Assembly (NCBI GenBank): GCA_041082215.1
Contig: JBDOIF010000093.1
Span: 5,504-69,503 of the forward strand
Direction: 5' to 3'
DNA length: 64,000 bases
Origin: Anaerolineae bacterium
GTDB lineage: Bacteria; Chloroflexota; Anaerolineae; B4-G1; DUEL01
Under the pieces are notes generated by a model. It was given only the letters and a program-made list of their open reading frames with translations, was not told the origin of the DNA and made no database searches. The position numbers were made by a program, and so were the translations under genes. Shown here piece by piece: positions 25,947-63,386 of this stretch (positions are counted from its first letter, which is position 1; the number at the start of each line of letters is the position of its first letter).

Positions 25947-26772
25947 CAAACGGGCCTGCAGGGGGGCGCGATACGTCGCCCTCCTGGTCGCTGGGGCGCT
26001 GCTCGTCGCCAGCCCGACGGCGGCGCAGGAGCCGCCCCATCGGGCCGGCCTGGTGGTGGTCCACGGGGACGGGCGGGCGGTCACCCGCTGCGTCTCCTTC
26101 GCCGAAGAGGCCATCACCGGAGTTGACCTGCTTCGCCGCTCCGGCCTCTCTGTGACCCTGTCCGCCTTCGGTGGGCTGGGATACGGCGTCTGCGCGATAG
26201 ACGGGGAGGGGTGCCAGGCCGAAAACTGTTTCTGCCAGTGCCAGGGGAGCCCCTGCGCCTACTGGGTCTACTCCCATCGCCAGCCGGATGGCTCGTGGGC
26301 CATCTCCGGCGTGGGGGCCAGCTCCTGGCAACTGCGGGACGGCGATGTGGACGGCTGGGTGTGGGGGGACGGGTCTACCGCTCCCCCACCCCTCCCCTTT
26401 GAGGCCATTTGCCCGGAAGATGCCGCTCCGCCTCCGACAGAACAACAGCCATCCCCGACAGCCGCCGGGTCTCCCACCGCACCGTCCACCCCACCCCCAT
26501 CGCCGACACATGCCATCGCCACCGCCACCCCTGCACCGCCCTCCGTCACAGCTACCCCAACCACCCCGCCAGGCCCCAGCCCGACCGTCCCCCCAACCCC
26601 CAATCCAACCATCCTCCCTACCCCCACGGACCGGCCTCCCGTATCCTCCCCCACCCCAACCTCCCAACCGGCAGCCGCTTCCGGTGTCTCTCCTGCCGGC
26701 TATGCCTTCTTCGGCCTCTTCACCCTGGGGCTGGTGGGCTTGCTCCTCTACGTCCTTTTGCGGCAAAAATGA
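25921..26772 (+). CDS. secreted Cys-rich DUF4430-like domain protein with Pro/Thr-rich stalk and C-terminal TM anchor; candidate cobalamin-binding beta-domain protein
   Basis: A signal peptide is followed by a globular domain of about 100 aa (CVSFAEE...GEGCQAENCFCQCQGSPCAYWVYSHRQPDGSWAISGVG...WQLRDGDVDGWVWGDGS), a long PT-rich linker and a C-terminal TM helix. It may start at TTG 25921 or GTG 25936. Confidence 0.65.
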   Translation: MPCAAVAGSKRACRGARYVALLVAGALLVASPTAAQEPPHRAGLVVVHGDGRAVTRCVSFAEEAITGVDLLRRSGLSVTLSAFGGLGYGVCAIDGEGCQAENCFCQCQGSPCAYWVYSHRQPDGSWAISGVGASSWQLRDGDVDGWVWGDGSTAPPPLPFEAICPEDAAPPPTEQQPSPTAAGSPTAPSTPPPSPTHAIATATPAPPSVTATPTTPPGPSPTVPPTPNPTILPTPTDRPPVSSPTPTSQPAAASGVSPAGYAFFGLFTLGLVGLLLYVLLRQK

Positions 26773-27569
26773 AACTCCGAAGCGCGATCTCCGGTTCCAT
26801 CTACGGGCTGAGTGCCGTCCTCGGCATCCTGGCCTTTCTGTACCCCTTCTTCCTCCACAGCCAGACGGCGGCTGCCGTAGGGCTGGCCCACAGCCAGGAC
26901 GCGCCGCTGGTGACGACGATGCTGGTGGGGCTTTCGCTGCTGGCCCTGCTGGTGGAAATGGAAGGGGAAGCGCTCAGCGCCAAGACGGTTGCCCTGCTGG
27001 GTGTGCTGGTCGCTCTCACCAGCGCCCTGCGCTTCCTGGAGGTCGCTTTCCCGATGCCCGGCGGCTTTTCCCCCATCTTCGCCTTCATCATCCTCGCTGG
27101 CTATGTCTTCGGCGGGCGGTTCGGCTTCCTGATGGGCGTGTTTACCCTGCTCGCCTCCGCCCTGATCACCGGAGGGGTAGGCCCCTGGCTTCCCTACCAG
27201 ATGTTCACTGCCGGCTGGGTCGGCCTCACGGCCGGCTGGCTCCCACGCAAAACCCAGCACACGACGCGCTCCATCCTCCTTCTCTCTATCTTCGCCTTCG
27301 CCTGGGGCTTTCTTTACGGCGCGGTGATGAACCTCTACTTCTGGCCTTTCGCCGTGGGGCCGGCCGGGCAGAGCTGGCAACCAGGCATCGGGCTGAAGGA
27401 GACCCTGGCCCGTTACGCCGCCTTCTACATCGTCACTTCGCTGGGATGGGACCTGATGCGGGCATTGGGGAACTTCGCCCTGATCCTGCTCCTGGGAGCG
27501 CCGGTGGTCCGGGTGTTCACCCGCTTCCGGCACCGCTTTCACTTCGAACTGGAGGCCAGCAATGGTTGA
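26769..27569 (+). CDS. polytopic membrane protein, probable ECF-type substrate-capture (S) component
   Basis: 267 aa with about 7 TM helices. It lies directly upstream of, and overlaps, the EcfT-A-A' fusion, and sits in the B12 riboswitch operon. Confidence 0.55.
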
Positions 27570-30330
27570 TGTGCGGGCCTGGCTTCTCTGGGCGCTGACG
27601 GGGACGGTGATCGCCTCCTCCACCCGCAACCCCCTCTATCTCTTCCTTCTGGTGCTGACGATCGCGGTGGTGGGCGCGGCCCGGCCATCCGGCTCCAGGC
27701 GGAAGCAGGCCCTATCCTCCCTCCGCTTTACAGCGGCAGCCGTCCCTCTGGCCGCCCTGTTCAACGGCCTGACCGCCCACATCGGCGATACGGTCCTTTT
27801 CCACCTGCCTGCCCGACTCCTGCTGATCGGCGGGCCGGTGACGGCGGAAGCCCTCATCTATGGGGCGATCAGCGGCCTCACACTGACCACAATTCTGAGC
27901 GCTTTCGCCGTCTTCAACCAGGTGACGCCGGTTCACGAACTGGTGGGCCTCACCCCACGCGCCCTGCACGAGACCGGCATCATCCTCTCCATCGCCCTCA
28001 CCTTCATCCCCCAGACGGGCCGCAGCCTGACCCGTATCCGGGAGGCCCAGGCTGTGCGCGGCCACCGCCTGCGGGGACTTCGCGGCTGGCTCCCTATCCT
28101 CATTCCCCTCCTGGTGAGCGGGATGGAACAGTCTATGGGGCTGGCCGAGGCGATGGTCGCCCGCGGGTACGGCTCCGTTTCGGACCGGGACCATTCCACC
28201 CGCACACGGGGGCTGCTGGCCCTGGGACTGCTCGGCGTGCTCGGGGGGTGGCTGGGGATGCTTTTCCTCCCTGCCTGGAAGTATGCTGCGCTGGTCGGGT
28301 TGCTGGCCGGCGGCCTTCTCGTCATCAGCGCACTGTGGCTGGCAGGACGGGCCGCTCCACGGACCGCTTACCGCCCCAGGCGGTGGACCCCTCAGAGCAC
28401 GCTGGTCGTTCTGGGCTGTGGGGCGGCGCTGGCTGCGGTCCTGTTGCCCTGGCCCGGAGCCGAAACGGCAGCCTATACACCCTACCCCAGCCTCACCCTC
28501 CCCCCCTTCGACCCGGCTGTCGGGCTGGGCCTGCTGGGGCTGCTGATGCCAGCACTGGCTGCAGAACGGCGACCTGCACGAGAGGAGGCCCGGGGACCGG
28601 TCCGTTCCTGCGCTCCTGTGACCTCATCCCCTTCTCCTGCGAGGAAAGGGGGAGGGAACGGGGATAAGGTCTCCAGACCCCTATCAGATGCCCCCTTCAT
28701 CCAGTTCAGCCGGTTCACCTATACTTACCCCCAGGCCCTCCACCCTGCCCTCTCCGGGGTGAACCTCCGCATTGAGGAAGGGGAATTCGTGCTGGTGACC
28801 GGCGTCTCCGGTGCAGGCAAGTCCACCCTGCTGCGGGCCCTCAACGGCCTGGTTCCCCACTTCAGCGGGGGGAAGGTGCAGGGCCACGTCTCCGTCGCCG
28901 GGCACAGCCCCGCCGTAGAAGGGCCGCAGGTGCTCAGCCGGGTCGTCGGCTTCGTCTTTCAGGACCCCGAGGCCCAGTTCGTCGTGGATCGGGTGGAGGA
29001 CGAGATCGCCTTTGCGCTGGAGAACCTGGCCCTCCCCCCTGCCCAGATGCGCCTGCGGGTGGAGGAGGTGATGGACCTCCTGGGGCTTACCCCACTGCGG
29101 GATCGGCCGCTGGAGAGCCTCTCCGGAGGGGAGAAGCAACGGGTCGCCATCGGCGCAGCCCTGGCCCTCCGCCCCCGCGTCCTCGTCCTGGACGAACCCA
29201 CCTCCCAGCTCGACCCCTGGTCGGCCGACGAGGTGTTGCAGGCCCTGGTGCGCCTGAACCGGGAGCTGGGCCTCACCGTTATCCTGGCCGAACACCGGCT
29301 GGAGCGAGTCCTCCCCTACGCGGACCGGCTGGTCTACCTGCCGGCCCCCTCGGAGGGGAGGCGGCGGAACGGGCGGGTGCTGAGCGGCCCACCCCGCCAG
29401 GTCCTTCCCCGGATGGAGCTGACGCCGCCGCTGGTCACCCTGGGCAAGGCTCTGGGCTGGGACCCGCTCCCCATTACCCTGGAGGAAGCGCCAGCGACCA
29501 GCGGCGAGCTACGGACAACCAGTAACCAGCAACCAGCAACGAGCTACAGGCAACCGGCAACCCTTCTCCGCATACGGGGGCTTTCTTTCAGCTACGGGGC
29601 CACCCCAGCCCTGCGCGGTGTGGACCTGGAGGTGGGGATGGGAGAGCTGGTGGCATTGATGGGGCGCAACGGCTCCGGCAAGACCACGCTGCTGCGATGC
29701 GTCGTGGGGCTGCTGCACCCTTCAGGGGGAGAGATCGAACTGGAAGGTCGCTCTCTTGTGGGGCTGGACCCGACCCGCATTTGTCGGCAGGTGGGGTATC
29801 TGCCCCAGGAGCCGGACGATCTGCTCTTTGCCGAGACGGTGGCAGAGGAACTGGCCGTCACCCTGCGCAACCACGGCCTTCTCGACCGCCCGCCTATCTC
29901 CCCTGCTACCCTGCTGGAGCGCCTGGGGCTGGGGGGTGTGGCGACGGCCTACCCGCGCGACCTGAGCGTTGGCCAGCGGCAGCGGGTAGCGCTGGGGGCG
30001 GTCACCGTCACCCGGCCCCGGCTCCTGCTCCTGGACGAGCCAACGCGGGGGATGGACTACCTCGCCAAGCAGGGACTGGTCCGCCTGCTCCGGGAATGGC
30101 AGGCGGAGGGGGTCGGTGTCCTGCTGGTGACCCACGATGTGGAGCTGGCAGCTCAGGCAGCGGACCGCGTGGTGGTGCTGGACCAGGGGGAGGTGGTCGC
30201 AGCGGGCCCCCCATCGGAAGTGCTTTCCGGCCCCTCCCTTTTCGCCCCCCAGATCGCCCGGCTCTTTCCGGGCACGGGCTGGCTGACCGTCGAGGAGGCG
30301 CTGGCAGGGCTGGCTAGGGGGAGTGGATGA
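27562..30330 (+). CDS. triple fusion EcfT-EcfA-EcfA' (ECF transporter T component fused to two ABC ATPase domains), 922 aa
   Basis: An N-terminal CbiQ/EcfT membrane domain of about 230 aa is followed by a Pro-rich linker. NBD1 carries [17 protein letters not shown] and VLDEPTS. NBD2 carries [17 protein letters not shown] and LLDEPT. Confidence 0.85.
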
Positions 30331-31960: not shown

Positions 31961-33514
31961 ATGGGAAAAAAGAGCGGGCTATGGACCGTTGCGGTTGCGG
32001 CGGTGCTTGTTCTGGGGACCCTGTCGGGATGGGCAAATGCAGCGCCGTCGCTCCAGGGGACGGGAGAGAACCTGCTGAAGAACCCGGGGTTTGAGGGGCT
32101 CACCTGCAACCCGGCCTCTCCGCCGGGGTGGTGCTACGATAACTGGACCCGCGATACCTACAACGGGATTCCCTATGGGGAGATCTTCACTCCACAGGGA
32201 TGGGTCACGTTCTGGAGCGAGGGGACGAACCCGGCAGATGGGCGGAAGTACGGTCGGCCGGAGTGTAAGGTCATCCCCAAGCAAGCCCCCTTCCTGGGCC
32301 CTCCGGCCCGCATCCGCAGCGGGAACTACGCGATCATGCAGTTCGGTTTCTTCCGCGCCATTGACTCCGGCGTGTACCAGGTCGTCACCGGGCTGACGCC
32401 CCACGCCATCGTCCAGGCCTCCGCCTATGCCCACGCCTGGGCCTGCGGCGACGACGAGCACGGGGCCTACTCCTGCGGCGAGCCGTATCAGATGCTCTTC
32501 CGCGTCGGCATAGACCCCAACGGCGGCACCAATCCCTGGAGCCCGACCGTCATCTGGGCCAGCGGCTACTCGTACGACGAGTACCGCCTCATCGGCCCGG
32601 TGCAGGCCGAGGTGGGCGATGCTGGCACGGTTACCGTTTTTCTGCGGGCAACGGCCAAGTGGCCCCTGAAGCACAACGATGTCTACTGGGACGATGCCTC
32701 CCTGATCTACGTCACCCCGCCGGCCACACCGACCAACACCCCGCTGCCCCCGCCCCCCACGGCAACGCCCGGCCCCTCTCCCACTCCGCTGCCCACCCCC
32801 ACCCCCCGGCCCGATGGCGCCATCGTCCACATCGTCCAGCCGGGCGACACGCTCTTCGGCATCGCTCTCCAGTACGGCGTGCCGATGGAGCAGATTCAGC
32901 AGTTGAATGCCGGCTCCATCGGCCCCAACAATCTGATCCAGGTGGGTCAGGAGCTGGTCATCGCCATACCCTCCGCCACCCCCACCCCGGTTCCGCCCCC
33001 CACTCAGGTGGCAGAGGTCACCGCCACTCCTGCGCCCGCCGAGGTAGGGGCGGTCTGTGTGCTGGCCTACCATGACCGAAACGGGGATACCTTCCGGCAG
33101 CCAGACACAGAAGAGCCATTGCCCAACGCCGTCTTCTCCCTGGGCGATGCGAGCGGCCTTCTGGGGCAATACACCACCGACGGCCTGAGCGAGCCCTACT
33201 GCTTCACCGGGCTGGCCCCGGGCACCTACCGGGTGGCCATGCAGCCGCCAGCGGGCTATGTGGCCAGCGGGCCTTCCGACATGGCGCTCGCAATGGGCAC
33301 AGGGGGAGCGCTGGAAATAGCTATGGGGGCCAGGCGAGGCGAAGCACCGGCCACACCCGAAGGGTCGGAAGTGGTCCAGCCGGAACCCACAGAGGAGGCC
33401 ACCTCGGGCCTGCCGCTGGTGCTCCGCCGGGCGGCCGGCGTCAGCGGCATCCTGCTTCTGGGGCTGGCACTGGCAGTGGCCGTCCTCTTCGTCCTCTCCC
33501 GCCTGCGACGGTAG
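31961..33514 (+). CDS. secreted multidomain protein: carbohydrate-binding-like N-terminal domain, Pro/Thr linkers, LysM domain, SdrD-B/Cna-B-like domain, C-terminal TM anchor
   Basis: Signal peptide; NLLKNPGFE... beta-sandwich region; LysM (IVHIVQPGDTLFGIALQYGVPMEQIQQLN); a VCVLAYHDRNGDTFRQPD...GTYRV region; hydrophobic C-terminus followed by RLRR. Confidence 0.75.
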   Translation: MGKKSGLWTVAVAAVLVLGTLSGWANAAPSLQGTGENLLKNPGFEGLTCNPASPPGWCYDNWTRDTYNGIPYGEIFTPQGWVTFWSEGTNPADGRKYGRPECKVIPKQAPFLGPPARIRSGNYAIMQFGFFRAIDSGVYQVVTGLTPHAIVQASAYAHAWACGDDEHGAYSCGEPYQMLFRVGIDPNGGTNPWSPTVIWASGYSYDEYRLIGPVQAEVGDAGTVTVFLRATAKWPLKHNDVYWDDASLIYVTPPATPTNTPLPPPPTATPGPSPTPLPTPTPRPDGAIVHIVQPGDTLFGIALQYGVPMEQIQQLNAGSIGPNNLIQVGQELVIAIPSATPTPVPPPTQVAEVTATPAPAEVGAVCVLAYHDRNGDTFRQPDTEEPLPNAVFSLGDASGLLGQYTTDGLSEPYCFTGLAPGTYRVAMQPPAGYVASGPSDMALAMGTGGALEIAMGARRGEAPATPEGSEVVQPEPTEEATSGLPLVLRRAAGVSGILLLGLALAVAVLFVLSRLRR

Positions 33515-33543
33515 CTCTCGGCAGGGAAGCTCCGACAAACAGA

Positions 33544-33574
33544 CATCGCCTGGGGGATCCCCAGGCGATGTTTT
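33544..33574. terminator. bidirectional intrinsic terminator between convergent genes
   Basis: CATCGCCTGGGG-gatc-CCCCAGGCGATG followed by TTTT. Confidence 0.7.
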
Positions 33575-33596
33575 CATCGTTAGGGTCAGAGAACAC

Positions 33597-33794
33597 CTAC
33601 TCCTCTTCTTCCCACTCCTCTTCCCAGTCTTCCTCCCATTCCTCCTCGTAGTCAACCCAGTCCAGCTCAACGGGGTCCAGTTCGATCACCTCCAGCTCGG
33701 CTTCGCAGTAGGGGCAGACCACCCTCTGGCCGATTCTGGGGCGCCCGGACAACTTGATGTCGTCCCCACAGGACGGGCAAATCGCCACAGGCAT
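33597..33794 (-). CDS. LysW-like zinc-ribbon small protein with extended W/E-rich acidic tail (paralog 1)
   Basis: MPVAICPSCGDDIKLSGRPRIGQRVVCPYCEAELEVIELDPVELDWVDYEEEWEEDWEEEWEEEE shares the CPxCG...VVCxxCxAELEV..LDP architecture of LysW/amino-group carrier proteins. Confidence 0.75.
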   Translation of the reverse strand: MPVAICPSCGDDIKLSGRPRIGQRVVCPYCEAELEVIELDPVELDWVDYEEEWEEDWEEEWEEEE

Positions 33795-33934
33795 ATCCTA
33801 CCTCCTAACGGCTAAGATGGCTCTCTGTTGCAGGCGCGGTAGATTATAGGCAAAAGCTGTGAAAAAGGACGTAGAAGGGGCGTTCTAAAGACATTTCAGG
33901 GGACGGGGGAACGTGAAATTCCTGCCACAGTCGT

Positions 33935-34615
33935 TCAGCTCTGCGTGCTCAGCGTGTACCCCACGCCGGGGACGGTCATGATATAGCGGGGAGCGCGCGG
34001 GTCGGGCTCGATCTTGGCCCGCAGCCGGCTGACCAGCCCACGGACCAGGTCCCGGTCCCCCTCCCCCGTATATCCCCACACATGCTCCACCAGCGTCTCT
34101 GTGGGGAGCACCTGGTCTCGATTGATCATCAGCGTGTACAGCAGTCGGAACTCCAGGTGCGTCAACCGCTGAGGCGGCTGGTCCCCGACCTGCACCGCCC
34201 GTGTGGCGGGGTCCAGAGTCAGTCCTGCCACGCTCAGGGTCGGCAGCGTGAAGAACGGGACCCCCACCGCCCGCCGCAACAAAGCCCGCACCTGGGCGAT
34301 CAGCACCCGGGCGCTGAAAGGGCGCAGGATGACCAGGTCTGCCCCTGCCTCAAGGAGCTCGACATGAACCCCCTCTTCGATCCGGCCGGCGATCACCATC
34401 AGCGGCACCTGGGTTTGCGCCCGGAGGCGCCGAATCTGAGTGGCCGGTGGGCTTTCCCTGGCCGCCAGAACGACAAAATCCGCTGGCTTCTCCGGCCCTG
34501 TCTGCATAATCCGCTCCAGCGTGGCAGCCCGGCTCACGGTGAGGCCAGCCCGCTGCAACACCAGCGTCAGCACCGCCGCCTCGTCGGGGTCATAAGCAAC
34601 CAGCAGGGCGTGCAT
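33935..34615 (-). CDS. response regulator, OmpR/PhoB family (receiver + winged-helix DNA-binding domain)
   Basis: Receiver domain with a phospho-acceptor Asp and a C-terminal trans_reg_C (VGYTL). Confidence 0.85.
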   Translation of the reverse strand: MHALLVAYDPDEAAVLTLVLQRAGLTVSRAATLERIMQTGPEKPADFVVLAARESPPATQIRRLRAQTQVPLMVIAGRIEEGVHVELLEAGADLVILRPFSARVLIAQVRALLRRAVGVPFFTLPTLSVAGLTLDPATRAVQVGDQPPQRLTHLEFRLLYTLMINRDQVLPTETLVEHVWGYTGEGDRDLVRGLVSRLRAKIEPDPRAPRYIMTVPGVGYTLSTQS

Positions 34616-34846
34616 CCGAAAGAGACCTCCGCAGAATGGGATGGATGATGTCCTAATGATACCTTAATAGCGGAAGAAGACAAGTCAAAAAACGCCGAGA
34701 GGCACAGAGGACGCGGAGAAACGTCAGGAGGCCTCAGATTCTCCGCAGAGACTCTATGCTCCATGGTGAGAACAAACGAAAAGCCTCCCCCCCGATATGT
34801 AAGGGAGAGGCTTCTTGAGCTATGCTCAGCTTATTCGGTTTTCGTC

Positions 34847-34939
34847 TTACTTTTTCTTCTTGCCACCCGGCTTCTTCTTGCCGCCGCCCTTATCGGTGGT
34901 GGTGGTGGTGGTAGTAGTCTTCTGAGTCTTTTTTGCCAT
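34847..34939 (-). CDS. candidate 30-aa Lys/Thr-rich peptide MAKKTQKTTTTTTTTDKGGGKKKPGGKKKK
   Basis: Not in the ORF track because it is under 60 aa. GGGAGGGG lies 7 nt upstream of the ATG, 52 nt downstream of LysW-like paralog 2 on the same strand. Confidence 0.4.
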   Translation of the reverse strand: MAKKTQKTTTTTTTTDKGGGKKKPGGKKKK

Positions 34940-34990
34940 TTTAACCCCTCCCGTTAAGATAGAATCCCCTCGGGAAAGCCTTCCCAGGAG

Positions 34991-35227
34991 CTAGGCTTCT
35001 TCCCAGTCTTCCTCGTCCCAGTCTTCTTCGTCTTCCCAGTCCTCCTCCTCCCACTCTTCTTCTTCTTCCCAATCCTCCTCGTAATCCACCCAGTCCAGCT
35101 CCAGCGGCTCCAGATCAATGACCTCAAGATCGGCATCACAGTGCGGACATCTCACGCGCTGTCCGAGTGTGGGACGGCCGGAGAGCTTGATATCCTCCCC
35201 ACACGAAGGGCAGATAGCTATAGCCAT
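34991..35227 (-). CDS. LysW-like zinc-ribbon small protein with extended W/E/D-rich acidic tail (paralog 2)
   Basis: MAIAICPSCGEDIKLSGRPTLGQRVRCPHCDADLEVIDLEPLELDWVDYEEDWEEEEEWEEEDWEDEEDWDEEDWEEA. The true gene is the C-terminal 78 aa of the 264-aa ORF-track entry. Confidence 0.75.
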   Translation of the reverse strand: MAIAICPSCGEDIKLSGRPTLGQRVRCPHCDADLEVIDLEPLELDWVDYEEDWEEEEEWEEEDWEDEEDWDEEDWEEA

Positions 35228-35397
35228 GTCCACCTCCCTGAAATTCTGAAAAACCCTGTATTGCTTGTTGGACTTCCCCTTTGCGACGGCAATTATAGGG
35301 ATGTGCTGTGCAAACTGACGTGGAGAAAATGTGTCAAGGATGTCCCAGAGGTAGCTTCTGTGTGCAATTCCTGCGACTCCAACCACCGGCATCCTGC

Positions 35398-36255
35398 CTA
35401 TCCGTTCCGCTTCAGCTTTCCGGTCCTTTTGGCGTACTGCTCCCCCAGGTGGAAAATCCACAACCCCAGGGGAATAGCAACCACCCCGGCCACCCCCAGC
35501 GGCCACAGGTAGGGCCACAGGGAGCGCGTGGGGGCTCCTTTCAGGATCGCGGCCCGCATTCCCTCCAGCACAAACGTCGCAGGAGAGACCCGCGCCAGCG
35601 GTTGCATCCACGCCGGCAGGACCTCGACCGGATAGTAGACCCCTGAGATGAGCAGGAAGACCGCCTGCACCACGTTGGTCATCTGTGCACCCCGCTCCGG
35701 GAAGAGGAGCGGTAGCACCGAGGCGACGACCCCCAGGCCGATGAAGGAAAGGCTCCCTGCCAGCAACAACAGCATCGCCCCCCACAGGTTCGCCTCACTC
35801 AGGTCGAGCTGGAAGAAAAAGGCCACCACCCCCAGGATGACAGCGGTGAAAAGCAGGCTGTAGAGGACTGCAAAGACGGTCTGCCCCATCATATGGGTAA
35901 AGCGGGTGATGGGGGCCATAAAAGTGTACTCGATCGTGTCCTCCCACCGCTCCCAGGCGATCATCTCGCTGATGTTTTCAAAGATGATCGCCAGGAATCG
36001 CCAGACCATCGTGCCGATCAGCAGGTAGAGGATCAGATAGTCGGCGTCCATCTTTACACCGGAGATGGCCTCCATACCGGCGCCGATGTAGGTGATGGAA
36101 AGCGTGGAGGTGATGGAGTAGGCCAGCCAGACCAGCTCCCATCCCCAGTACCGCCGCACCAGGTTGAAGTTTCGCTCCACAAAAGCGTATGAAGCCCGTA
36201 ACTCCCGCACGATCTGGGCCATATCTCTCCTTTCCTCCTCCGAAATCAATCGCAC
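35398..36255 (-). CDS. ABC-2 family transporter permease
   Basis: Six TM helices with an ABC2_membrane-type pattern, in the same operon as ABC ATPase 38289..39128. Confidence 0.75.
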   Translation of the reverse strand: MRLISEEERRDMAQIVRELRASYAFVERNFNLVRRYWGWELVWLAYSITSTLSITYIGAGMEAISGVKMDADYLILYLLIGTMVWRFLAIIFENISEMIAWERWEDTIEYTFMAPITRFTHMMGQTVFAVLYSLLFTAVILGVVAFFFQLDLSEANLWGAMLLLLAGSLSFIGLGVVASVLPLLFPERGAQMTNVVQAVFLLISGVYYPVEVLPAWMQPLARVSPATFVLEGMRAAILKGAPTRSLWPYLWPLGVAGVVAIPLGLWIFHLGEQYAKRTGKLKRNG

Positions 36256-37280
36256 ACCAGCGGCTTTCGATAGACGGCGCTCCGCTTCACCGGACGGAAG
36301 CCCACACTCTCATACAGCCGCAACGCACTGTTCGGGTTTTCGGTATCCACCCCCAGGCCAACCTCGGTCATACCCCGCTCGCGGAACAGGATCAGGCTGC
36401 GCACGAGCAGAGCCCGGGCCAGGCCGCGCCTCCGCCACGGGCGGCGCACGCTCAGGTCATCCACATAGCCCCGCCTGCGGCCGTACACCCTGTTCTCCTC
36501 CTCGTCTATAAGGTTGATCGCCACCCCGGCCACCTGCTCCCCATCCCATGCCACCTGCCACAGCTCAGGCGCAAAGCAGGGGTCCCCAAGCCACCGCTCG
36601 TAATCCCCCGCCTCCGGCTCCGAATACCCCCAGTGGTCGCGGAACGCCTCCAGGTTGGCGTCCCACACCGCCCGGTAATGCTCGGGCCGGACCGGGCGGA
36701 CCTCCAGGCCAGGAGGGAGCGGCGGCGGCTCGAGGCCGTCCAGCTTGTCGTGGACCATTTCGTAAAAGTAGCGCACCGGCCTGTATCCCCGACTCTGCAG
36801 CAGTTCGATCCATCGCTCCTGGCAGTCGTCGGCGTGGGTGGAGAGGAAGCGGGGGCCATCGGCTCTGTGGCCAGCGGCGATCTGCCGGAGGCGATGTTCG
36901 CAGTACTCCAGCATCGCCTCCCATATCCCCCCGCCCCGCCATTCGGCGACCACCGATACGTAATGGCGGTAAATCCAGGCCCCATCCGCCTCCTGATGCC
37001 ACCTCACGTTTCCATAGCCGACTGGTCTCCCTTCCACCTCGGCCAGGATCGTATCCCGGCAGGGGTCGAAGTCCGTCCGGTGGGCAAACCAGTTGGCCAC
37101 ATGCTCCATTCTGACAAAATAGTCCACCCCATCCGCCCTGTTGCTCCGGTTAAGCACATCGGCGATGGCCGCGTAGTCCTCCTCCCCCCCGACGGGGCGG
37201 AAGGTGAGGCCAGGGACCTCCAGCCGGGCAGCCAGCCCGTCCATCTTCAGCTCCTCGTCCATCTCAACCTCCCGGCGCAA
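36246..37280 (-). CDS. tandem GNAT N-acetyltransferase (MshD-like two-domain architecture)
   Basis: Two GNAT cores (…VVAEWRGGGIWEAML…, …DDLSVRRPWRRRGLARALL…). The start may be TTG 37280 or the internal ATG at about 37262. Confidence 0.75.
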   Translation of the reverse strand: MRREVEMDEELKMDGLAARLEVPGLTFRPVGGEEDYAAIADVLNRSNRADGVDYFVRMEHVANWFAHRTDFDPCRDTILAEVEGRPVGYGNVRWHQEADGAWIYRHYVSVVAEWRGGGIWEAMLEYCEHRLRQIAAGHRADGPRFLSTHADDCQERWIELLQSRGYRPVRYFYEMVHDKLDGLEPPPLPPGLEVRPVRPEHYRAVWDANLEAFRDHWGYSEPEAGDYERWLGDPCFAPELWQVAWDGEQVAGVAINLIDEEENRVYGRRRGYVDDLSVRRPWRRRGLARALLVRSLILFRERGMTEVGLGVDTENPNSALRLYESVGFRPVKRSAVYRKPLVCD

Positions 37281-37351: not shown

Positions 37352-38287
37352 CTACCCATTTCGGCGCCACAGGGTCAGGCTGTTCTGGGCTTCGAAACCC
37401 CGCGCAGCGGCCAGCGCCTGCCCCTCCGGCTCCTCCAGCAGCAGGTCCACATAGGCAAATCCCAGCCTGCCGGCCAGGTGTTGCACCGTCTCCACAAGCA
37501 CCCCCAGATCTGCCTGAGGCGGGGCCCAGATGAAGCCATCCGCCTGAGACGGCTCCAGCGGCTGGGCGGACACGCCCAACCAGGCCCCCCCGCCGTCGGG
37601 GAGCAGGACCCGCCAGCGGCCCCATGGAAGCCGCTGGAGTTCCGGCAGCGCCAGGTGAGGGAGGAGATCGTCCCACGCCTGACGGCCGCACTGGTAACGG
37701 CCCGCCCGCAGCACCACGCCTGTCCCTTCAGGATAGGGGGCATGAAGAGCAGGGTCCACCATCAGAGGGACGTCTCCCTTCAGCGTCTCCGCCTGCCACT
37801 CCCGCAGCCAGAGCCACGGCTCGAACCCCACCCGCGCATAGAACGGCTCCGCCGTCCGCTCCGGCTGGGTGGTCAGCGATAACCGGCCCCGTTCCTTTGC
37901 CAGCCCTGCTCCCGCCTCCACCAGCGCCCGTCCTACCCCCTGACCCTGCCAGCGGGCGTGGACGAAGAGGAGGGAGAGGTGGAGGGCCGGGCCATAGGGA
38001 GGCGGTTCGGGGTTCTCCACGAACTCCGCCTCCCCCACCACCCTTCCTCCCACCTCAGCCACCAGCACCGGGTGGCCTGCCCGCAGCCACCGGTTCAGGT
38101 GCACCGCACAGGTCTCCACACTCATCCACGGGCCGCCGTGGAGCCACCGCTCGTACAGGGAGAGGGCTTCGTAGGAGACAGGCTCCCCCTTCCCTCCCCG
38201 CCGCCAGGTCTCGACGTGGCTGCAGTGGATAGCGGTGACCGCCGCTGCGTCGGCCAGCGTTGCCGGTCGGATTCTCAGCTCTTCCAC
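37352..38287 (-). CDS. GNAT family N-acetyltransferase (two-domain)
   Basis: HARWQGQGVGRALVEAG acetyl-CoA-binding motif. Stop/start nearly abuts the upstream ABC ATPase. Confidence 0.75.
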   Translation of the reverse strand: MEELRIRPATLADAAAVTAIHCSHVETWRRGGKGEPVSYEALSLYERWLHGGPWMSVETCAVHLNRWLRAGHPVLVAEVGGRVVGEAEFVENPEPPPYGPALHLSLLFVHARWQGQGVGRALVEAGAGLAKERGRLSLTTQPERTAEPFYARVGFEPWLWLREWQAETLKGDVPLMVDPALHAPYPEGTGVVLRAGRYQCGRQAWDDLLPHLALPELQRLPWGRWRVLLPDGGGAWLGVSAQPLEPSQADGFIWAPPQADLGVLVETVQHLAGRLGFAYVDLLLEEPEGQALAAARGFEAQNSLTLWRRNG

Positions 38288-38288
38288 C

Positions 38289-39128
38289 TTATGCCTCCTC
38301 CAGCGCCTCTTCCCGCAGGTGCTTTCCTGTCAGCTCCATGAACACGTCCTCCAGCGTCACCTCGTGGCCGTTGGCGCGGGCCACACGGGCCTTGAGGCCC
38401 TCCGGGGTGTCCAGCGCCACGATCCGTCCCTCATCCAGGATCGCCACCCGGTCGCAGAGGGTCTCCGCCTCCTGCATGTCGTGGGTCGTCAGCAGGATGG
38501 TCGCGTCGTGCGTATCCCGCAGCTCCCGGACGAAGGCCTGCACCTCCCGCTTCGAGCGGGGGTCCAGCCCCGTCGTCGGCTCATCCAGGAGGAGAAGGAT
38601 GGGCTGGGTGAGGAAAGCGCGGGCGACGGCGACCTTCTGCTGCATCCCCCGGCTCATCTCCTCCATCGGCCGGAAGGCGTCGTCCCGCTTGAGGCCCAGC
38701 CGCTGCAGGATCTCCAGGATTCGCCGCCGGGCCTCCCCCGCGTCCAGGCCATACAGCCGGGCCCCGTAGAGGAGGTTTTCCATCGGCGTCAGCTTCTTGA
38801 AGAACGAGGCCTCCACCGAAACACGGTTGATCAGCCGTTTGACTGCCATCTCCTCCCGTTGCACGTCGTGGCCGAAGACGGTGATCCGGCCTTCATCGGG
38901 CAGGAGGAGAGTAGCGATGCAGCGGACCAGGGTGGACTTGCCCGAGCCGTTGGGGCCGAGGATGCCGAAGACCTCCCCGCGCCGGACCTGGAAGCTGACA
39001 TGGTCTATCGCCACGACCGGCTTGCGGCCGTCGCTCTCCCCCTTCCAGGGCCAGTGGAGTCCGCCACCTTTCACGAACCGCTTGCTGATGTCTGCGACCT
39101 CCAGGGCAATGGTTGTGCTGTCGTACAT
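38289..39128 (-). CDS. ABC transporter ATP-binding protein (ABC-2/daunorubicin-resistance type)
   Basis: Walker A GPNGSGKST, LSRGMQQKVAVAR and LLLDEPTTGLD. Confidence 0.9.
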   Translation of the reverse strand: MYDSTTIALEVADISKRFVKGGGLHWPWKGESDGRKPVVAIDHVSFQVRRGEVFGILGPNGSGKSTLVRCIATLLLPDEGRITVFGHDVQREEMAVKRLINRVSVEASFFKKLTPMENLLYGARLYGLDAGEARRRILEILQRLGLKRDDAFRPMEEMSRGMQQKVAVARAFLTQPILLLLDEPTTGLDPRSKREVQAFVRELRDTHDATILLTTHDMQEAETLCDRVAILDEGRIVALDTPEGLKARVARANGHEVTLEDVFMELTGKHLREEALEEA

Positions 39129-41187: not shown

Positions 41188-41434
41188 CCGGATCATCCGC
41201 GCCAGCGAGATCGGCCAGTACACCTTCTGCGCCCGCGCCTGGTGGCTGGGCACGGTCGAAGGGCGGCCTTCTACCCACCAGCAGGAGATGGCAGCGGGGG
41301 ATATGGCCCACCGTCAGCACGGCAGACGGGTGCGGGCTTCGGCGATGCTGGCCCGCCTGGCCTATCTGCTCCTGGCCCTGGCGGCCCTGGCGGCGGCCGT
41401 CGCGCTGCTGCGTGCGCTGGGGGCAGGCGGGTGA
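41168..41434 (+). CDS. N-terminal fragment/partner of a Cas4-like PD-(D/E)xK nuclease (N-terminal Cys motif + hydrophobic segment)
   Basis: IRASEIGQYTFCARAWWL resembles the DUF83/Cas4 N-terminal Cys motif. A hydrophobic helix follows, then a stop that overlaps the next ATG (TGATG). Confidence 0.45.
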   Translation: MMQENTDRIIRASEIGQYTFCARAWWLGTVEGRPSTHQQEMAAGDMAHRQHGRRVRASAMLARLAYLLLALAALAAAVALLRALGAGG

Positions 41435-41955
41435 TGAACTGGACCGGCCTCTTCATCACCCTGTTGATCCTGGGGCTGGTCCTTCTCTGGCTGGCCCGCC
41501 GGTCCCGCGCCCGCACCGGGCTGCCCCCGGGCCGGATCGTCGCCGCCGACGTGGGCTCCTGGCAGCGGCTGGACCACCCCCTCTTTTCCCGGCGCCACCG
41601 GCTTGCAGGCCGGCCCGATTACATCGTCGCCGACGGGCCGGACCTGATCCCGGTGGAGGTCAAATCGGCCCGCGCCCCCGTCCACCCCTACAATTCCCAC
41701 GTCCTCCAACTGGCGGCCTACTGCCTGCTCGTCGCCGAAACGTCGGGGCGGCGGCCCCCCTACGGCATCCTCCGCTACGCCGACCAGACCTTCCAGATCC
41801 CCTACACTCGCGAGCTGGAGGAGGAGCTGCTGGCAGTACTGGAGGAGATGCGGGCAGGCCTGGCGGAAGGGGAGGCGCGGAGGAACCACAACGATACCCG
41901 CAGGTGTGCGGCCTGCGGGTATCGAGAGGTATGTGAGGAAGCTCTATCTCCCTGA
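41434..41955 (+). CDS. Cas4-like/DUF83 PD-(D/E)xK nuclease core with C-terminal CxxCxxxxxC cluster, preceded by a TM helix
   Basis: RPDYIVADGPDLIPVEVKSARAP (D...ExK) and QLAAYCLL (QxxxY) are present, and the C-terminus ends in RRCAACGYREVCEE. Confidence 0.6.
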   Translation: MNWTGLFITLLILGLVLLWLARRSRARTGLPPGRIVAADVGSWQRLDHPLFSRRHRLAGRPDYIVADGPDLIPVEVKSARAPVHPYNSHVLQLAAYCLLVAETSGRRPPYGILRYADQTFQIPYTRELEEELLAVLEEMRAGLAEGEARRNHNDTRRCAACGYREVCEEALSP

Positions 41956-41967
41956 ACGGCCTGTCCG

Positions 41968-43197
41968 TCAACCGGGGAGAGGTTCGCCGAAAAGCTCGTC
42001 CGCCCGGGCCAGCAGCTCCGCCCTCCGGTCCGGCTCCGTTCCCTTTGTCTCCAGATACCGCTCCAGAAGCTGCCGTGGGGTCATCTCTTCCGGGGAAAGA
42101 TTCCCCAGCCGCACCCGCGCCTCCCGCTCCACCTCCCGGGTGATGGAGCCGACGAAAGCGGCATCCGTCAGCAACGAACGGATATCCTGATCCCGTACCA
42201 GCGGCTCCTGATCGGCCCGCAGATGGAGGATCACCCGCACAACCGCATCCCTCAGGTCGTGGGCCGCCACTGCCCTCCGGAGCGCCGCCAGCGGGTCTTC
42301 GGCCCTCCGCAGGTCCGCCCTCACGGTGACAAAGGGGCGGGCGTCCACCTCAACGAACTTCCACACGGCTTCCCCCCGGGCCAGCTCCACCCAGCAGAAC
42401 CCCTTAGGCTCTCCCTCCTCGCCGAAGTCAACCCGCTCCAGGCTGCCGGCGTAGACGACAGGGGGGTGCCCTCCGCCGTTGAGGCTCTGATGCTTGTGGA
42501 TGTGGCCCAGAGCGACGTAATCCCAGGCCGGGTCGGCAAGCACAGAGCCCAGGACCACCGCGTCCCGCCCGATCATCACGCTCCGCTCCGAGCCATAGGT
42601 CGCACCGGAGACAGTGAGGTGGGCTGCCAGCACAGCGGGGATCTCTGGCTCAAGCCCGGCTGCCAGCGCCTGGATGTTCCCCGTGACGATGCGCTGGAGC
42701 TCCTGATCCAGTTGTTCGATGGAGAGGCCCCGGAACTGGTCGTGGGCCAGGAGGCGCTGGCGAGCCGGATAAGGGACGGTGGCAACCTGAACCGGGCCGT
42801 GGTGGGTCTCGATCCGGTGCACCTCTTCTTCCCGCCCCACAATGACGTTCGGCACGCCCAGGGTGTGGAAAATGTCTATGCTGGAAGCTCTCTGGACCAC
42901 TGCGGGCAGGTCGTGGTTGCCCACCAGGAGGAGGACAGGGATCCCGGCATCGGCGAGCCGCTTGACGCGGCGGGCGAAGGCCCGCTGATAAGTGGGGTTG
43001 GGGTCACGGGTTTTGTAGGCGTCGCCGGCAAAAAGCACCAGGTCCGCCTCATGCTCCAGCGCATACTCGACCAGCTCGTCAAAGCGACGGAGGAAGTCGA
43101 GCACCCGCTGATTCACCCCCGTGGTCGGGTCCAGGCGGCCGTAGTTTTCCATGCCGATGTGGAGATCGGCGAAGTGGAGGATCCGAATCCGGTTCAT
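41968..43197 (-). CDS. sbcD: Mre11/SbcD-family DNA repair nuclease
   Basis: Calcineurin-like phosphoesterase motifs (HFADLHIG, GDAYK, GNHDLP, GHIHK) are present. Confidence 0.85.
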   Translation of the reverse strand: MNRIRILHFADLHIGMENYGRLDPTTGVNQRVLDFLRRFDELVEYALEHEADLVLFAGDAYKTRDPNPTYQRAFARRVKRLADAGIPVLLLVGNHDLPAVVQRASSIDIFHTLGVPNVIVGREEEVHRIETHHGPVQVATVPYPARQRLLAHDQFRGLSIEQLDQELQRIVTGNIQALAAGLEPEIPAVLAAHLTVSGATYGSERSVMIGRDAVVLGSVLADPAWDYVALGHIHKHQSLNGGGHPPVVYAGSLERVDFGEEGEPKGFCWVELARGEAVWKFVEVDARPFVTVRADLRRAEDPLAALRRAVAAHDLRDAVVRVILHLRADQEPLVRDQDIRSLLTDAAFVGSITREVEREARVRLGNLSPEEMTPRQLLERYLETKGTEPDRRAELLARADELFGEPLPG

Positions 43198-43293
43198 AGG
43201 GACAGCTCCCGCAGTAAACAGACGTGAGGTGTTCCCCTCAGCCTGTGTACCAACCCTTCGTCGGTTGTGATGAAGTCGGCGCCGCGCTCCGTT

Positions 43294-44982
43294 CTAGATG
43301 CCTTCCGACTCGTCCTCCCCCCTCAACACCGCCCGGCCCCGGGCCAGCACCGCCTCCGGTTCCTCCTCCCGCACCCCCATCTCGGCGTAGAACTCGGGGG
43401 TACCATAGGTGCGGGTGCGGACCACCACCGGCATCGGTACGGCGTGGCCCAATACCAGTGCCTGCTGGCGGGTATCCAGCCGGGCCAGCACCTCCCGCAG
43501 CGGCTGGCTTCCGGCGATGCCGGAGAAGACCGCCCGGATGTCCGCCTCGTCGTCCAGGAGGCAGGTGACGCGGGTGCCGATCTGGCTCATCACCTCCGGG
43601 TCAATGCCGCTGGGCCGCTGGTCCACGATGAGCAGGGTGACGTTGTACTTGCGCAGCTCCCGGGCGATGGTGCCGAAGATGGTGTGGCGGGCAACGGCGG
43701 GGTCGAGGAACTTGTGGGCCTCCTCGACGGTGATGATCAGCGGGCGCGGCTCCTCCCCACCCCTGCCCAGCGCCGCCTCCTTACGCTCCACATAATGGGC
43801 GTGGATACGGCGGGTGATGTAGTTGGCCGCCAGGATGTAGGCCTCGAGGCTGTTGCCGAACCGCCCGAACTCCAGCACCACACTGATCCCCCGGTCCAGG
43901 TACTTCAGAATCTGGCTCACGGGGTCCTCCTCCACTTTCGGCTGGAGAAACTCGAAGCGGCGGAACATCCCCAACTTGCGCTGGATCGCCCCCAGGGTCC
44001 CACCGTGGAGTGTGCCCCGCTCCAGCGCCTCGTCCAGGTCCTCCAGCCGGTCCTCCTCATTCAGCAGCCGGGCGATCCATCCCGGCCCCAGCCTGCGGCG
44101 GAGGAAGTAGAGGGCGCCCACCTGCACGTCGGTGAGATCCATCAGCCCGGAGAGGCTGTCCACGTCCTCCGGCTCGATCTGGTCGTACCCGATGCGGACG
44201 ACGCCGTCCACCTTGCTGCCGCGCCGACGGGAGGAGTCCGGGTCGAGGGTGAAGACGGAGACCTCGCCGGTGGGGAAGAGCTGGCGAAGCCCTTTGATCT
44301 CCCGCCGGGCCTCGTCCTGGCTCTTCCAGCCGTACTCGTTGTGCATGTCGAAGATCAGGTTGACCGCCACCCGCTGGTGGATGATGCCAGCCAGCAGGAG
44401 GCGGGTGAGGAAGGTCTTGCCGGTGCCGGTCTTGCCGAAGACCCCCGCCGACCGTTCGACGAAGCGGTTGAGGTCGAGCGCCACGTGGACCCCCTCCATT
44501 TCCAGCGGGTCGCCGATGTAGAAGTAGCCCGGCCGGCTCTCCTGGCCGAAGATGAGGGCCACGTCCTCCTCGCTGGCAGTGTAGACGGGGGCGAAGTGGG
44601 CGGGGATGGTTTTGACCGGCTTCGGCTCGTCGCTCCCTTCCTCCACCATCAGCATCGGCGCGACGTGGATGCGGCCGAAGGTGGAGGTGCCCTCGTGAAC
44701 CCGGGCGATGAAGGGGTCGGATACATCGGGCGGGGTCTTCTCGATGAAGGGGTTGGTGGCATCCAGGGCCACGTCGTTGATGATGGAAAAGAACCGGCGG
44801 CCGGAGCGGCCGTGGATAACCACATACCGTCCCACCGCCAGCCCCTCGATCTGGGTCTGGGGGTCGAGTTTCACTTCCAGCCCCCTGGAAAGGCTCCCCC
44901 CCACGACGATGCCCAGCCGCTGGGCAGGGGCAGGCTCAGGGGCGCGAGGGAACCATCGGTCCAGCTCTTCTGAATGGGCCAT
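43294..44982 (-). CDS. herA: HerA-like ATPase/helicase (DUF87, FtsK-HerA superfamily) with N-terminal HAS-barrel
   Basis: An N-terminal barrel region (LGIVVGGSLSRGLEVKL...VGRYVVIHG) is followed by a Walker A motif (GKTGTGKTFL), the helical insert and a Walker B motif (LLIVDQ). Confidence 0.8.
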   Translation of the reverse strand: MAHSEELDRWFPRAPEPAPAQRLGIVVGGSLSRGLEVKLDPQTQIEGLAVGRYVVIHGRSGRRFFSIINDVALDATNPFIEKTPPDVSDPFIARVHEGTSTFGRIHVAPMLMVEEGSDEPKPVKTIPAHFAPVYTASEEDVALIFGQESRPGYFYIGDPLEMEGVHVALDLNRFVERSAGVFGKTGTGKTFLTRLLLAGIIHQRVAVNLIFDMHNEYGWKSQDEARREIKGLRQLFPTGEVSVFTLDPDSSRRRGSKVDGVVRIGYDQIEPEDVDSLSGLMDLTDVQVGALYFLRRRLGPGWIARLLNEEDRLEDLDEALERGTLHGGTLGAIQRKLGMFRRFEFLQPKVEEDPVSQILKYLDRGISVVLEFGRFGNSLEAYILAANYITRRIHAHYVERKEAALGRGGEEPRPLIITVEEAHKFLDPAVARHTIFGTIARELRKYNVTLLIVDQRPSGIDPEVMSQIGTRVTCLLDDEADIRAVFSGIAGSQPLREVLARLDTRQQALVLGHAVPMPVVVRTRTYGTPEFYAEMGVREEEPEAVLARGRAVLRGEDESEGI

Positions 44983-44985
44983 CGG

Positions 44986-45426
44986 TCACTTCTCCTCCAA
45001 TACGCCCAGGCGCTTCAGGTAGGCAGCGATATACCTGGCGAACTCCCGGAAGTCGGCACTTCCGTGTTGGAGGTGCTCATAGACCTTTTCCGGGTCCACC
45101 CGGAGATATTCATGCACCAGGATGTTTCGGAAGCCAACGATAGGAGCCAACCGGTGGGCAAAGTCCTCAGGAAGCACGCCTGCCTTTCCCAGAGCCTCGA
45201 TCGCCTCCCGGTAGTCCTGAATACGGTATGAGAAATCAGCAGTGATGATGTGTACGGCGATGTCTGCTATAGCCTGCGCCCCAAGCTGAAGGCTGTGCTG
45301 GATCGCGCGGTACTTCACGAAATCAGAAAGGATATCCGCGAAGGAGAAGGCACGGTAATGGTCCAATTCGGCGGCATAAGCCTCCAGGGCCTCCAACCGC
45401 TCCAGCACGGTCTCTTTATCTACCAT
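44986..45426 (-). CDS. hepT: HepT-like (DUF86) nucleotidyltransferase-substrate-binding toxin
   Basis: RNILVHEY (Rx4HxY) motif. It overlaps the upstream MNT gene by 11 nt. Confidence 0.8.
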   Translation of the reverse strand: MVDKETVLERLEALEAYAAELDHYRAFSFADILSDFVKYRAIQHSLQLGAQAIADIAVHIITADFSYRIQDYREAIEALGKAGVLPEDFAHRLAPIVGFRNILVHEYLRVDPEKVYEHLQHGSADFREFARYIAAYLKRLGVLEEK

Positions 45427-63157: not shown

Positions 63158-63386
63158 CCTGCTTCTCCTTCCCTGGGGTAGAATCCGCTCATCCTGCGGG
63201 CTATTCAGCAATTATACGTATATGCCGTAAAAGGACAAAAAACAAACAAACACGACATCGAGCGCCGAAGCGTCCGAAAAGCTGAATCCGCAGCCAGCGG
63301 AGACAAAAAAACGGCGCTCCCGGCCACCATGGCCAGGACGCCGCCTTTCTCAGCCTGCCCGCCGCGCCTCCCGCGGCTCCTTCCAG

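Follow-up and report, generated by a model that had tools for sequence, protein, structure and literature searches.

The window considered here is a 64-kb stretch of a contig from an Anaerolineae bacterium. On its minus strand it carries two small paralogous genes, A and B, whose products resemble the amino-group carrier protein (AmCP) LysW, and between them lies the gene of an orphan OmpR/PhoB-family regulator. A preliminary description of this DNA had proposed a pair of LysW-like paralogs with acidic tails, accompanied by an OmpR-type regulator between the two, a Lys-rich micro-ORF, GNAT domains, and an ABC-2 exporter. Both open reading frames (ORFs) of the pair are present with D/E/W tails as described, and all of the neighbours were found. 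The family to which A and B almost certainly belong is called the ELDW family below, and the loci of relatives are labelled L001, L010, and so on. The features of the locus, in gene order on the minus strand from 39128 to 33543, are as follows.

38289-39128, minus strand: ABC ATPase gene (Pfam match)
37352-38287, minus strand: GNAT gene (Pfam match)
36246-37280, minus strand: two-domain GNAT gene (Pfam match)
35398-36255, minus strand: ABC-2 permease gene (Pfam match)
35294-35377, minus strand: promoter/operator of B, built like that of A (position weight matrix, PWM, from other loci)
34991-35227, minus strand: paralog B, 78 aa, a LysW-fold zinc ribbon with an ELDW motif and a 32-residue D/E/W tail with a terminal Ala (ORF, PF21344)
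34847-34939, minus strand: K/T/G-rich micro-ORF, 30 aa, downstream of B (ORF and ribosome-binding site)
34779-34815, minus strand: intrinsic terminator closing the unit of B and the micro-ORF (15-bp stem, then a T-rich tail)
34656-34683, minus strand: sigma-70-like promoter candidate of the regulator gene, TTGTCT-16-TATCAT (sigma-70 scan)
33935-34615, minus strand: orphan OmpR/PhoB-family regulator, predicted pseudo-receiver, 226 aa, between A and B (Trans_reg_C)
33844-33927, minus strand: promoter/operator of A, activator-type, with phased direct repeats (PWM from other loci)
33597-33794, minus strand: paralog A, 65 aa, a LysW-fold zinc ribbon (residues 1-40) with the invariant ELDW and a 19-residue D/E/W tail (ORF, PF21344)
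33543-33571, minus strand: intrinsic terminator past A (13-bp stem, then a T-rich tail)

A, B, the micro-ORF, and the regulator gene each have a GGAGG-type ribosome-binding site. That of the micro-ORF (GGGAGGGG) lies 5 nt upstream of its ATG, and B starts, behind a GGAGG, at an internal ATG within a longer ORF (34991-35785). Because the terminator at 33543-33571 comes after A, this gene is monocistronic. A protein identical to B is also called on metagenome contigs (P0007). An Rfam scan of 33300-35600 for riboswitches or leader RNAs gave no match at E<=1.

The paralogs are identical at 38 of their first 50 residues. At the codon level, first and second positions are identical at 90 of 100 sites and third positions at 23 of 50; because third positions differ while first and second positions are kept, both genes are under purifying selection, and the duplication is an old one. 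Beyond the ELDW motif, the tail of A comprises 19 residues (14 D/E, three W, and one Y) and that of B 32 residues (24 D/E, five W, and one Y), and neither contains K or R. As whole proteins, A has a net charge of -19 and B one of -29. The C-terminus of A is EEEE and that of B is EEA.

The globular part of both proteins is certainly LysW-like, as had been claimed. The Pfam family PF21344 (Zn_ribbon_LysW) matches A with 43.1 bits and B with 44.1 bits, above its cutoff of 27, and a profile of the ELDW family recovers the LysW proteins of Thermus (3wwl, E=4.7e-13) and Thermococcus (3.8e-10). In an AlphaFold2 model of A, residues 1-40 form a four-stranded ribbon with a predicted local distance difference test score (pLDDT) of 88-92, and the tail, at pLDDT 51-57, is without secondary structure and thus predicted to be disordered. 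A Foldseek search with this model puts Thermus LysW 3wwl first, at 50% identity over 40 residues, and LysW chains from Thermus, Thermococcus, and Sulfolobus occupy ranks 1-5 and 7 of the matches in the PDB. The outcome with hidden Markov models of the LysW family was nevertheless divided, since the Pfam model is passed but the equivalog model TIGR01206 (cutoff 53.2 bits) is not, with 40.2 bits for A and 21.4 for B. On NF041070 (cutoff 75 bits), A scores 23.7 and B is not listed.

The features that define LysW as a carrier were sought in relatives as well as in the window. About 100 loci were gathered from genome and metagenome collections and by exact-protein look-ups, and the neighbours of ELDW genes were clustered in about 30 non-redundant lineages; the patterns used to scan the collections were built from 11 sequences and are degenerate and of limited recall, so that the locus counts given here are samples rather than a census. 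Neither the C-terminal EDWGE of LysW nor its terminal Glu is conserved. In 27 close homologs, and in those of 150 library representatives that have a single domain, the ends include YGH, DYR, PDF, DDL, EDW, and many others, and they vary even inside the clade that is linked to lysine 2,3-aminomutase genes. A genuine LysW recovered by the same metagenome scan (L067) ends in EDWGE and looks different from A and B. LysX, LysZ, LysY, and LysJ genes never adjoin an ELDW gene in the approximately 30 lineages. In the window itself, a Pfam scan of the approximately 40 larger ORFs, which left out about 15 smaller ones, revealed no ATP-grasp enzyme, amino-acid kinase, semialdehyde dehydrogenase, or class-III aminotransferase, and tblastn of the window with lysine 2,3-aminomutase (AblA), ATP-grasp, and kinase queries gave no match. 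A lone M20 peptidase gene lies about 10 kb away (22992-24332). The pair therefore stands, as proposed in the preliminary description, outside a canonical lysine or arginine cluster, at least with regard to LysX, LysZ, LysY, and LysJ among the larger ORFs scanned.

Judged from sequence, A and B are not LysW. They have the zinc-ribbon fold and sequence homology in common with the LysW/ArgW carriers (TIGR01206, NF041070; PDB 3WWL, 5K2M, 3VPB), as well as a flexible acidic Trp-containing C-terminal extension, and in some relatives the gene adjoins an ATP-grasp ligase. In contrast to LysW, in which approximately 14 residues end in EDWGE, tails of the ELDW family consist of 19-90 residues of D/E/W repeats. 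The substrate-carrying C-terminal Glu is not conserved and a new invariant ELDW motif is present; LysK, like the enzymes above, is never encoded next to them; the nearby ATP-grasp enzymes are of the Ddl type, unlike the RimK-type LysX/ArgX; and arrays of two to five paralogs surround a transcription regulator. The clear LysW homology, and the label 'lysine biosynthesis protein LysW' that some close homologs bear in JGI and NCBI records, would fit an ordinary LysW or ArgW of the alpha-aminoadipate lysine or arginine pathway whose partner enzymes are encoded elsewhere. However, the subthreshold equivalog scores, the C-termini (B ends in Ala), the gene context, and the contrast with L067 make this extremely unlikely. 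Hundreds of database clusters carry, or would attract, the LysW label without having the features of a carrier, and reconstructions of Chloroflexota pathways that rely on it would be wrong.

The ELDW family is large, uncharacterised, and in this analysis comes mainly from Anaerolineae. A word-indexed search returned 27 clusters of close A/B homologs, the named ones being Anaerolineae or Chloroflexota metagenome-assembled genomes (MAGs). In these, the four Cys and E-L-D are invariant and the following W nearly so, and the tails vary in sequence and length but keep their richness in D/E and aromatic residues. When 1.84 billion representatives were searched exhaustively with a profile, 2801 clusters matched at E<=1e-3, of which 571 reached E<=1e-10; the matches include two- and three-domain zinc-ribbon fusions, many with basic linkers. 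Among the library representatives P0028-P0081, many such two- and three-ribbon fusions have K/R-rich linkers and basic tails, and several end in an acidic Trp motif (RDRDWGE, KDDWDW, EPKWDE). For 50-aa tail-less relatives from Thermotogae and Bipolaricaulota MAGs and unassigned metagenome contigs, no conserved neighbourhood was found. The fold is already known, and the family is implicit in PF21344 and in database names. However, literature searches on LysW-like proteins, PF21344, and aminomutases with ATP-grasp enzymes turned up no description of the acidic-tail ELDW subfamily, which agrees with the initial remark that the arrangement is not a known one. Nor was an earlier description found of the other associations reported below, namely the linkage of ELDW genes with those of an OmpR-type pseudo-receiver and of a sensor kinase, the Pho-box-like operator, and the operon with AblA and ATP-grasp genes.

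The protein encoded between A and B has the makeup of an atypical OmpR/PhoB regulator: its output domain is a winged helix, and its receiver-like domain is without the phospho-acceptor Asp. In Pfam, Trans_reg_C matches with 84.8 bits, and Response_reg reaches 23.7 bits, under its cutoff of 30.2. In an alignment with KdpE, a two-residue gap falls exactly at the phospho-acceptor Asp, the conserved S/T is replaced by A, and the conserved K by R. The Asp is missing in all 11 orthologs inspected, and orthologs form at least 120 clusters at 63% identity or more. OmpR/PhoB regulators bind tandem direct repeats, and the Asp-less members ChxR and HP1043 act without phosphorylation (PMC3960148, PMC8345958, PMC12632262). 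The combination of an Asp-less receiver with strong conservation places the regulator with these phosphorylation-independent proteins. Like ChxR, HP1043/HsrA, GlnR, and NblR, it combines a winged-helix output with a degenerate receiver; like other atypical members, it is an orphan in most loci; and its presumed sites are tandem direct repeats, as are those of ChxR and HP1043 (PMC3960148, PMC5253667, PMC8345958). Unlike the known atypical regulators, it forms a distinct and highly conserved orthologous group of Chloroflexota and is consistently linked to small acidic proteins of the LysW fold, a class of partner or target that has not been described for the others and that a review of pseudo-receivers does not mention (PMC12632262).

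Three types of gene recur beside ELDW genes, always on the same strand: the OmpR-type regulator, a sensor kinase, and lysine 2,3-aminomutase with ATP-grasp enzymes. An ortholog of the regulator (226-227 aa, 57-84% identical) adjoins an ELDW gene in 11 of about 30 lineages and in both gene orders, with the regulator first in the window, L010, L015, L101, L102, and L103 and the ELDW gene first in L032, L036, L046, L052, and L053. The linkage was also sampled from the opposite side. For six regulator orthologs chosen only for their long contigs, an ELDW gene lay within 1.4 kb in four cases, one of these genes being uncalled and found by translation. Paralogs flanking the regulator recur as well: L030 and L032 have the arrangement ELDW-regulator-ELDW-ELDW, in which the first two ELDW genes each have their own operator, and in L036 (8001-10730) five ELDW genes with starts at 8001, 9250, 9506, 9793, and 10515 surround the regulator (8381-9061). 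A sensor histidine kinase of approximately 1100 aa (HAMP-GAF-PAS-HisKA-HATPase) starts 167-371 nt downstream of the ELDW gene in 11 lineages, and L103 has the order regulator-ELDW-kinase.

An additional small ORF was noticed in L102 (4270-4581), between the regulator and the ELDW gene. It encodes a 103-aa protein that resembles a zinc ribbon (CxxC...CxxC), carries a tail made strongly basic by R/K, and has no Pfam or NCBIfam match; L101 has an 83-aa ORF at the matching position. The 103-aa basic protein is a possible counterpart to the acidic ELDW proteins.

The promoters of A and B share an architecture that is conserved among ELDW genes. In an ungapped alignment of 15 ELDW promoters from five clades, anchored on the -10 box, a repeat unit of approximately TTTTGnACA recurs, and the PWM of this unit peaks at alignment positions 76, 64, 53, 43, 23, and 13, corresponding to a phasing of about 10.5 bp. 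TATAAT follows the proximal unit at a distance of 10 nt, and there is no -35 box. The TATAAT of A is at 33848-33843 and that of B at 35297-35292; a sigma-70 scan called no promoter for either gene and one for the regulator gene. In the promoter of A, the motif GCAGGAATTTCACG is found at 33912-33925; the promoter of B has GCAGGAATTGCACA at 35361-35374 and three repeat units at 11-bp spacing. A distal element, GCAGGAWTTNCACR, has two matches in the window, one per promoter, against 0.15 expected. When an operator PWM trained without the window sequences was used to scan both strands of the window (128 kb), the promoter of A ranked first (27.0 bits) and that of B second (19.9 bits); the next best match scored 8.7, against a background with a mean of -61.6 and a standard deviation of 13.9. 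There was no match at the promoter of the regulator gene, and none ahead of the operon of GNAT and ABC-2 genes, the operator thus preceding only the ELDW genes.

The same PWM was applied to both strands of the collected loci (1.87 Mb), where most strong matches lie 44-136 nt upstream of an ELDW gene that had been found by pattern. It recovers ELDW promoters outside its training set (L041, L053, L101, L103, and L104), and further strong matches lie upstream of ELDW genes that had escaped the search by pattern (L030, L032, L036, and L102). Weak matches of less than 20 bits occur in L041, L047, L039, and L019. The operator is absent from L100 and L105, in which the regulator occurs without an ELDW gene, and therefore it tracks the ELDW genes rather than the regulator. 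In L050 (157-240, minus strand) and L052 (86-169, minus strand), a second, divergent copy faces away from the ELDW gene and toward a gene cut by the contig end, which suggests a further member of the same regulon. Most ELDW transcripts also appear to have a GC-rich hairpin at their start, located past the -10 box and ahead of the ribosome-binding site (e.g., L010 7940-7975, L015 7935-7965, and L032 1215-1245). This structure recurs without conservation of its sequence and may be an mRNA-stabilising stem-loop.

Class II activation of the PhoB type has as its signature phased direct repeats that run head to tail up to the -10 box and stand in for the -35 box. The adjacent OmpR-type regulator is the obvious candidate for the presumed binder. 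PhoB-dependent Pho-box promoters and ELDW promoters are alike in having units phased at 10-12 bp, a proximal unit 10 nt from a good -10 box, and no recognisable -35 box. The ELDW operator differs from the Pho box in the sequence of its repeat and in comprising up to six units over approximately 65 bp together with a conserved distal element (GCAGGAWTTnCAC). It is probable that the ELDW genes are regulated by an activator that binds these repeats, and the balance tilts slightly toward this activator being the adjacent regulator. Among the possibilities raised in the preliminary description, a regulatory module is the one that the comparative data favour, because the regulator is conserved between or near ELDW genes and both paralogs carry the promoter of the family.

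The proposed mechanism is as follows. The regulator would bind four to six head-to-tail repeats in place of a -35 box, as PhoB does at the Pho box, and its binding would switch on A and, separately, B together with the micro-ORF. The ELDW proteins would keep the zinc ribbon of LysW as a docking domain, with a disordered polyanionic, Trp-studded tail in place of the short EDWGE end. This tail would act non-covalently, inserting into basic surfaces of partner proteins as the LysW tail does with its enzymes, and would not take part in carrier chemistry at a C-terminal Glu. The likeliest partners would be signalling proteins, i.e., the Asp-less regulator and, in relatives, the large sensor kinase, which would result in feedback; where they are encoded, lysine 2,3-aminomutase and the ATP-grasp enzymes, whose genes are co-transcribed with the ELDW gene, are further candidates. 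Taken as a whole, this chain, in which the ELDW genes and the Asp-less regulator form a conserved module with A and B as targets and perhaps partners through docking of their tails, is put forward tentatively, its likelihood being somewhat short of even. Feedback of the ELDW proteins on the regulator or kinase, considered separately, is rather unlikely.

Several observations weigh against this account. In six ELDW lineages, none of the three recurrent partners is encoded nearby, and two of the six sampled regulator orthologs (L100 and L105) have no ELDW gene nearby. The kinase-linked clade with the sequence CPSCGEWV has an ordinary TTGCAA-N17-TAAAAT promoter and no operator. Another OmpR-type protein, or some other repeat-binding factor, could be responsible for the repeats. 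Five paralogs around one regulator would not be expected of a simple stoichiometric co-regulator, and the tight operons of ELDW, aminomutase, and ATP-grasp genes point equally to an enzymatic partner. Finally, because much of the synteny lies within one class, the Anaerolineae, it may be partly inherited rather than selected.

The enzymatic association is found in seven lineages (L012, L019, L020, L038, L101, L102, and L104), where the ELDW gene lies directly upstream of, and on the same strand as, the gene for AblA, followed by one or two genes for Ddl-type ATP-grasp ligases. Two of these AblA proteins were scanned with TIGR03820 (cutoff 525.4), and those of L012 and L102 scored 565.6 and 537.8 bits. 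Such operons suggest that the ELDW proteins could be carriers or substrates of the Ddl-type ligase in an AmCP-like beta-lysine chemistry, loaded on Glu/Asp side chains or at the C-terminus in analogy to the loading of LysW by LysX, with the enzymes encoded elsewhere in the organism of the window. This would be in keeping with the 50% identity of the globular domain to Thermus LysW, with gaps between the ELDW and aminomutase genes as short as 4 nt (L102), with an M20 peptidase, from the family of LysK, whose gene in L103 and L104 immediately precedes that of the regulator, and with the frequency of GNATs among the neighbours. However, the C-terminal Glu is lost and the ends vary even where the aminomutase is present, the ligase is not of the LysX/RimK type, approximately 23 of the 30 lineages have no aminomutase or ATP-grasp gene nearby, and none was found among the larger ORFs of the window or by tblastn. 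Arrays of two to five paralogs with differing tails would also be unusual for a carrier. The carrier idea is thus weakened but not dead, and is considered unlikely. The recurring operon itself suggests either a new carrier-protein chemistry or a new route involving beta-lysine.

Pairs of Ddl-type ATP-grasp genes also adjoin the Asp-less regulator in L105 (5536-7684, together with a GNAT gene) and L104 (6149-7684). Because such pairs occur beside the regulator even without an adjacent ELDW gene, the regulator may control a ligase-based pathway more generally. A peptide natural product was a further candidate. A ribosomally synthesized and post-translationally modified peptide (RiPP) precursor of the graspetide or cyclophane type was rejected, as no modifying enzyme is conserved across the ELDW lineages and the would-be leader is a folded zinc ribbon; moreover, the radical SAM enzyme of relatives is lysine 2,3-aminomutase rather than a SPASM-type protein, and the ATP-grasp enzymes are of the Ddl type.

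The presence of AblA, which makes beta-lysine, is open to a different explanation. Beta-lysine is the precursor of the osmolyte N-epsilon-acetyl-beta-lysine (PMC1224877). The ELDW proteins could be abundant, inducible polyanions that buffer cations (K+, Mg2+, polyamines, or beta-lysine) or shield macromolecules under osmotic or ionic stress; the regulator and kinase would then merely control them, and they would be one output beside compatible-solute genes and exporters. An inducible-type promoter, strong ribosome-binding site, and terminator for A and B are features that fit such effectors, multi-copy arrays are typical of small stress proteins, and the tails are conserved in composition rather than in sequence or length. 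ABC-2 and MFS transporters and GNATs also recur beside the regulator. Nevertheless, the strictly conserved zinc ribbon and invariant ELDW indicate specific docking over bulk polyanion chemistry, an ATP-grasp enzyme rather than the acetyltransferase AblB comes after AblA, and osmotic regulation of these genes is hypothetical. A stress effector is judged as likely as a carrier, and both are improbable.

The remaining neighbours in the window do not share the conservation of the regulator. The micro-ORF product (MAKKTQKT8DKGGGKKKPGGKKKK, net charge +10) differs in length among metagenome assemblies from this organism, having 30 aa in L001 but 29 aa in both L002 and L003; within its gene, at 34880-34905, eight Thr codons (ACT ACT, followed by six ACC) form a run whose length varies between assemblies. 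The peptide has no exact match in the protein collection. A scan for K-rich products among all small ORFs up to 2.5 kb from the ELDW gene in 14 other loci yielded only frame-shifted acidic tails or noise. The micro-ORF is thus species-specific, and it was rejected as a conserved partner. Similarly, tblastn of the window neighbours against every locus found the GNAT and ABC-2 genes to be kept only in L010 and, beside the regulator, in L100; they accompany the regulator in these two lineages and the window, are absent in L015, L036, and L101-L105, and were rejected as a conserved context. It is the regulator gene that is a conserved partner of the ELDW genes, whereas the micro-ORF and the GNAT and ABC-2 genes are not.

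These distributions bear on the suggestions that the acidic proteins are a decoy, antidote, or chaperone for a basic peptide, or belong to a system of natural-product export with the GNAT and ABC-2 genes. In the window these would appear attractive, as B and the micro-ORF form one transcription unit with good ribosome-binding sites and a single terminator and have complementary charges (-29 and +10), and the GNAT and ABC-2 genes lie immediately upstream of B. However, the decoy suggestion of the preliminary description is without comparative support because the micro-ORF is absent at every other locus examined, and A has no such K-rich partner. The GNAT and ABC-2 genes do not track the LysW-like genes, being beside the regulator in only three lineages and absent from most ELDW loci, and the conserved promoter is ahead of the ELDW genes rather than of their operon. 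Either function is very unlikely.

A more specific version of the proposed regulatory module is that the LysW fold has been re-used as a ligand in signalling, so that the ELDW proteins would supply the missing input of, or feedback to, a widespread OmpR-type regulator that has no Asp. The ribbon would dock, and the polyanionic Trp tail would mimic DNA or a phosphorylated surface and so switch the regulator on or off; the protein might relay a signal from the co-encoded sensor kinase, which would be unable to phosphorylate an Asp-less regulator. In a variant, the co-transcribed ATP-grasp enzyme would modify the tail at many positions with beta-lysine and turn it into a multi-site amino-group carrier. 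Together, this version and its variant are given a low likelihood. Small proteins that are tied to two-component systems and act by binding the kinase or regulator include PmrD, SipA, Sda, and the RssB anti-adaptors. Such connectors would match the proposed feedback role, but none has a LysW fold or a polyanionic tail, and for the ELDW proteins such an interaction is suggested by gene linkage.

How pseudo-receiver response regulators are controlled is generally an open question (PMC12632262). In the present case, an Asp-less regulator that is conserved across Anaerolineae comes with a candidate regulon, marked by the phased-repeat operator, and a candidate family of protein partners, which offers a tractable entry to the problem of how such regulators are wired. 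If true, the use of ELDW proteins as signalling ligands would be the first concrete mechanism by which a pseudo-receiver is controlled by a dedicated small protein.

Several other genes in the window were noted. An archaeal-style set for DNA-end resection lies at 41434-47639 and comprises the following.

41434-41955: PDDEXK/Cas4-like nuclease
41968-43197: Mre11-like metallophosphoesterase
43294-44982: HerA-type ATPase
46461-47639: NurA

At 7672-10020, a topoisomerase I has an N-terminal DUF5679 domain, and a free-standing DUF5679 protein is encoded near the ELDW gene of L007 (8515-8871). A single ORF of 922 aa (27562-30330) is an apparent fusion of the T component of an energy-coupling factor (ECF) transporter with two ABC ATPase domains, and the gene of an ECF S component (26409-27569) lies upstream of it. 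Finally, an MttB-family (trimethylamine methyltransferase-like) gene is located at 61673-63211, followed by an MFS_2 transporter and a GNAT gene; its reading frame is not interrupted by an in-frame stop, so that it presumably belongs to the members of this family without pyrrolysine.

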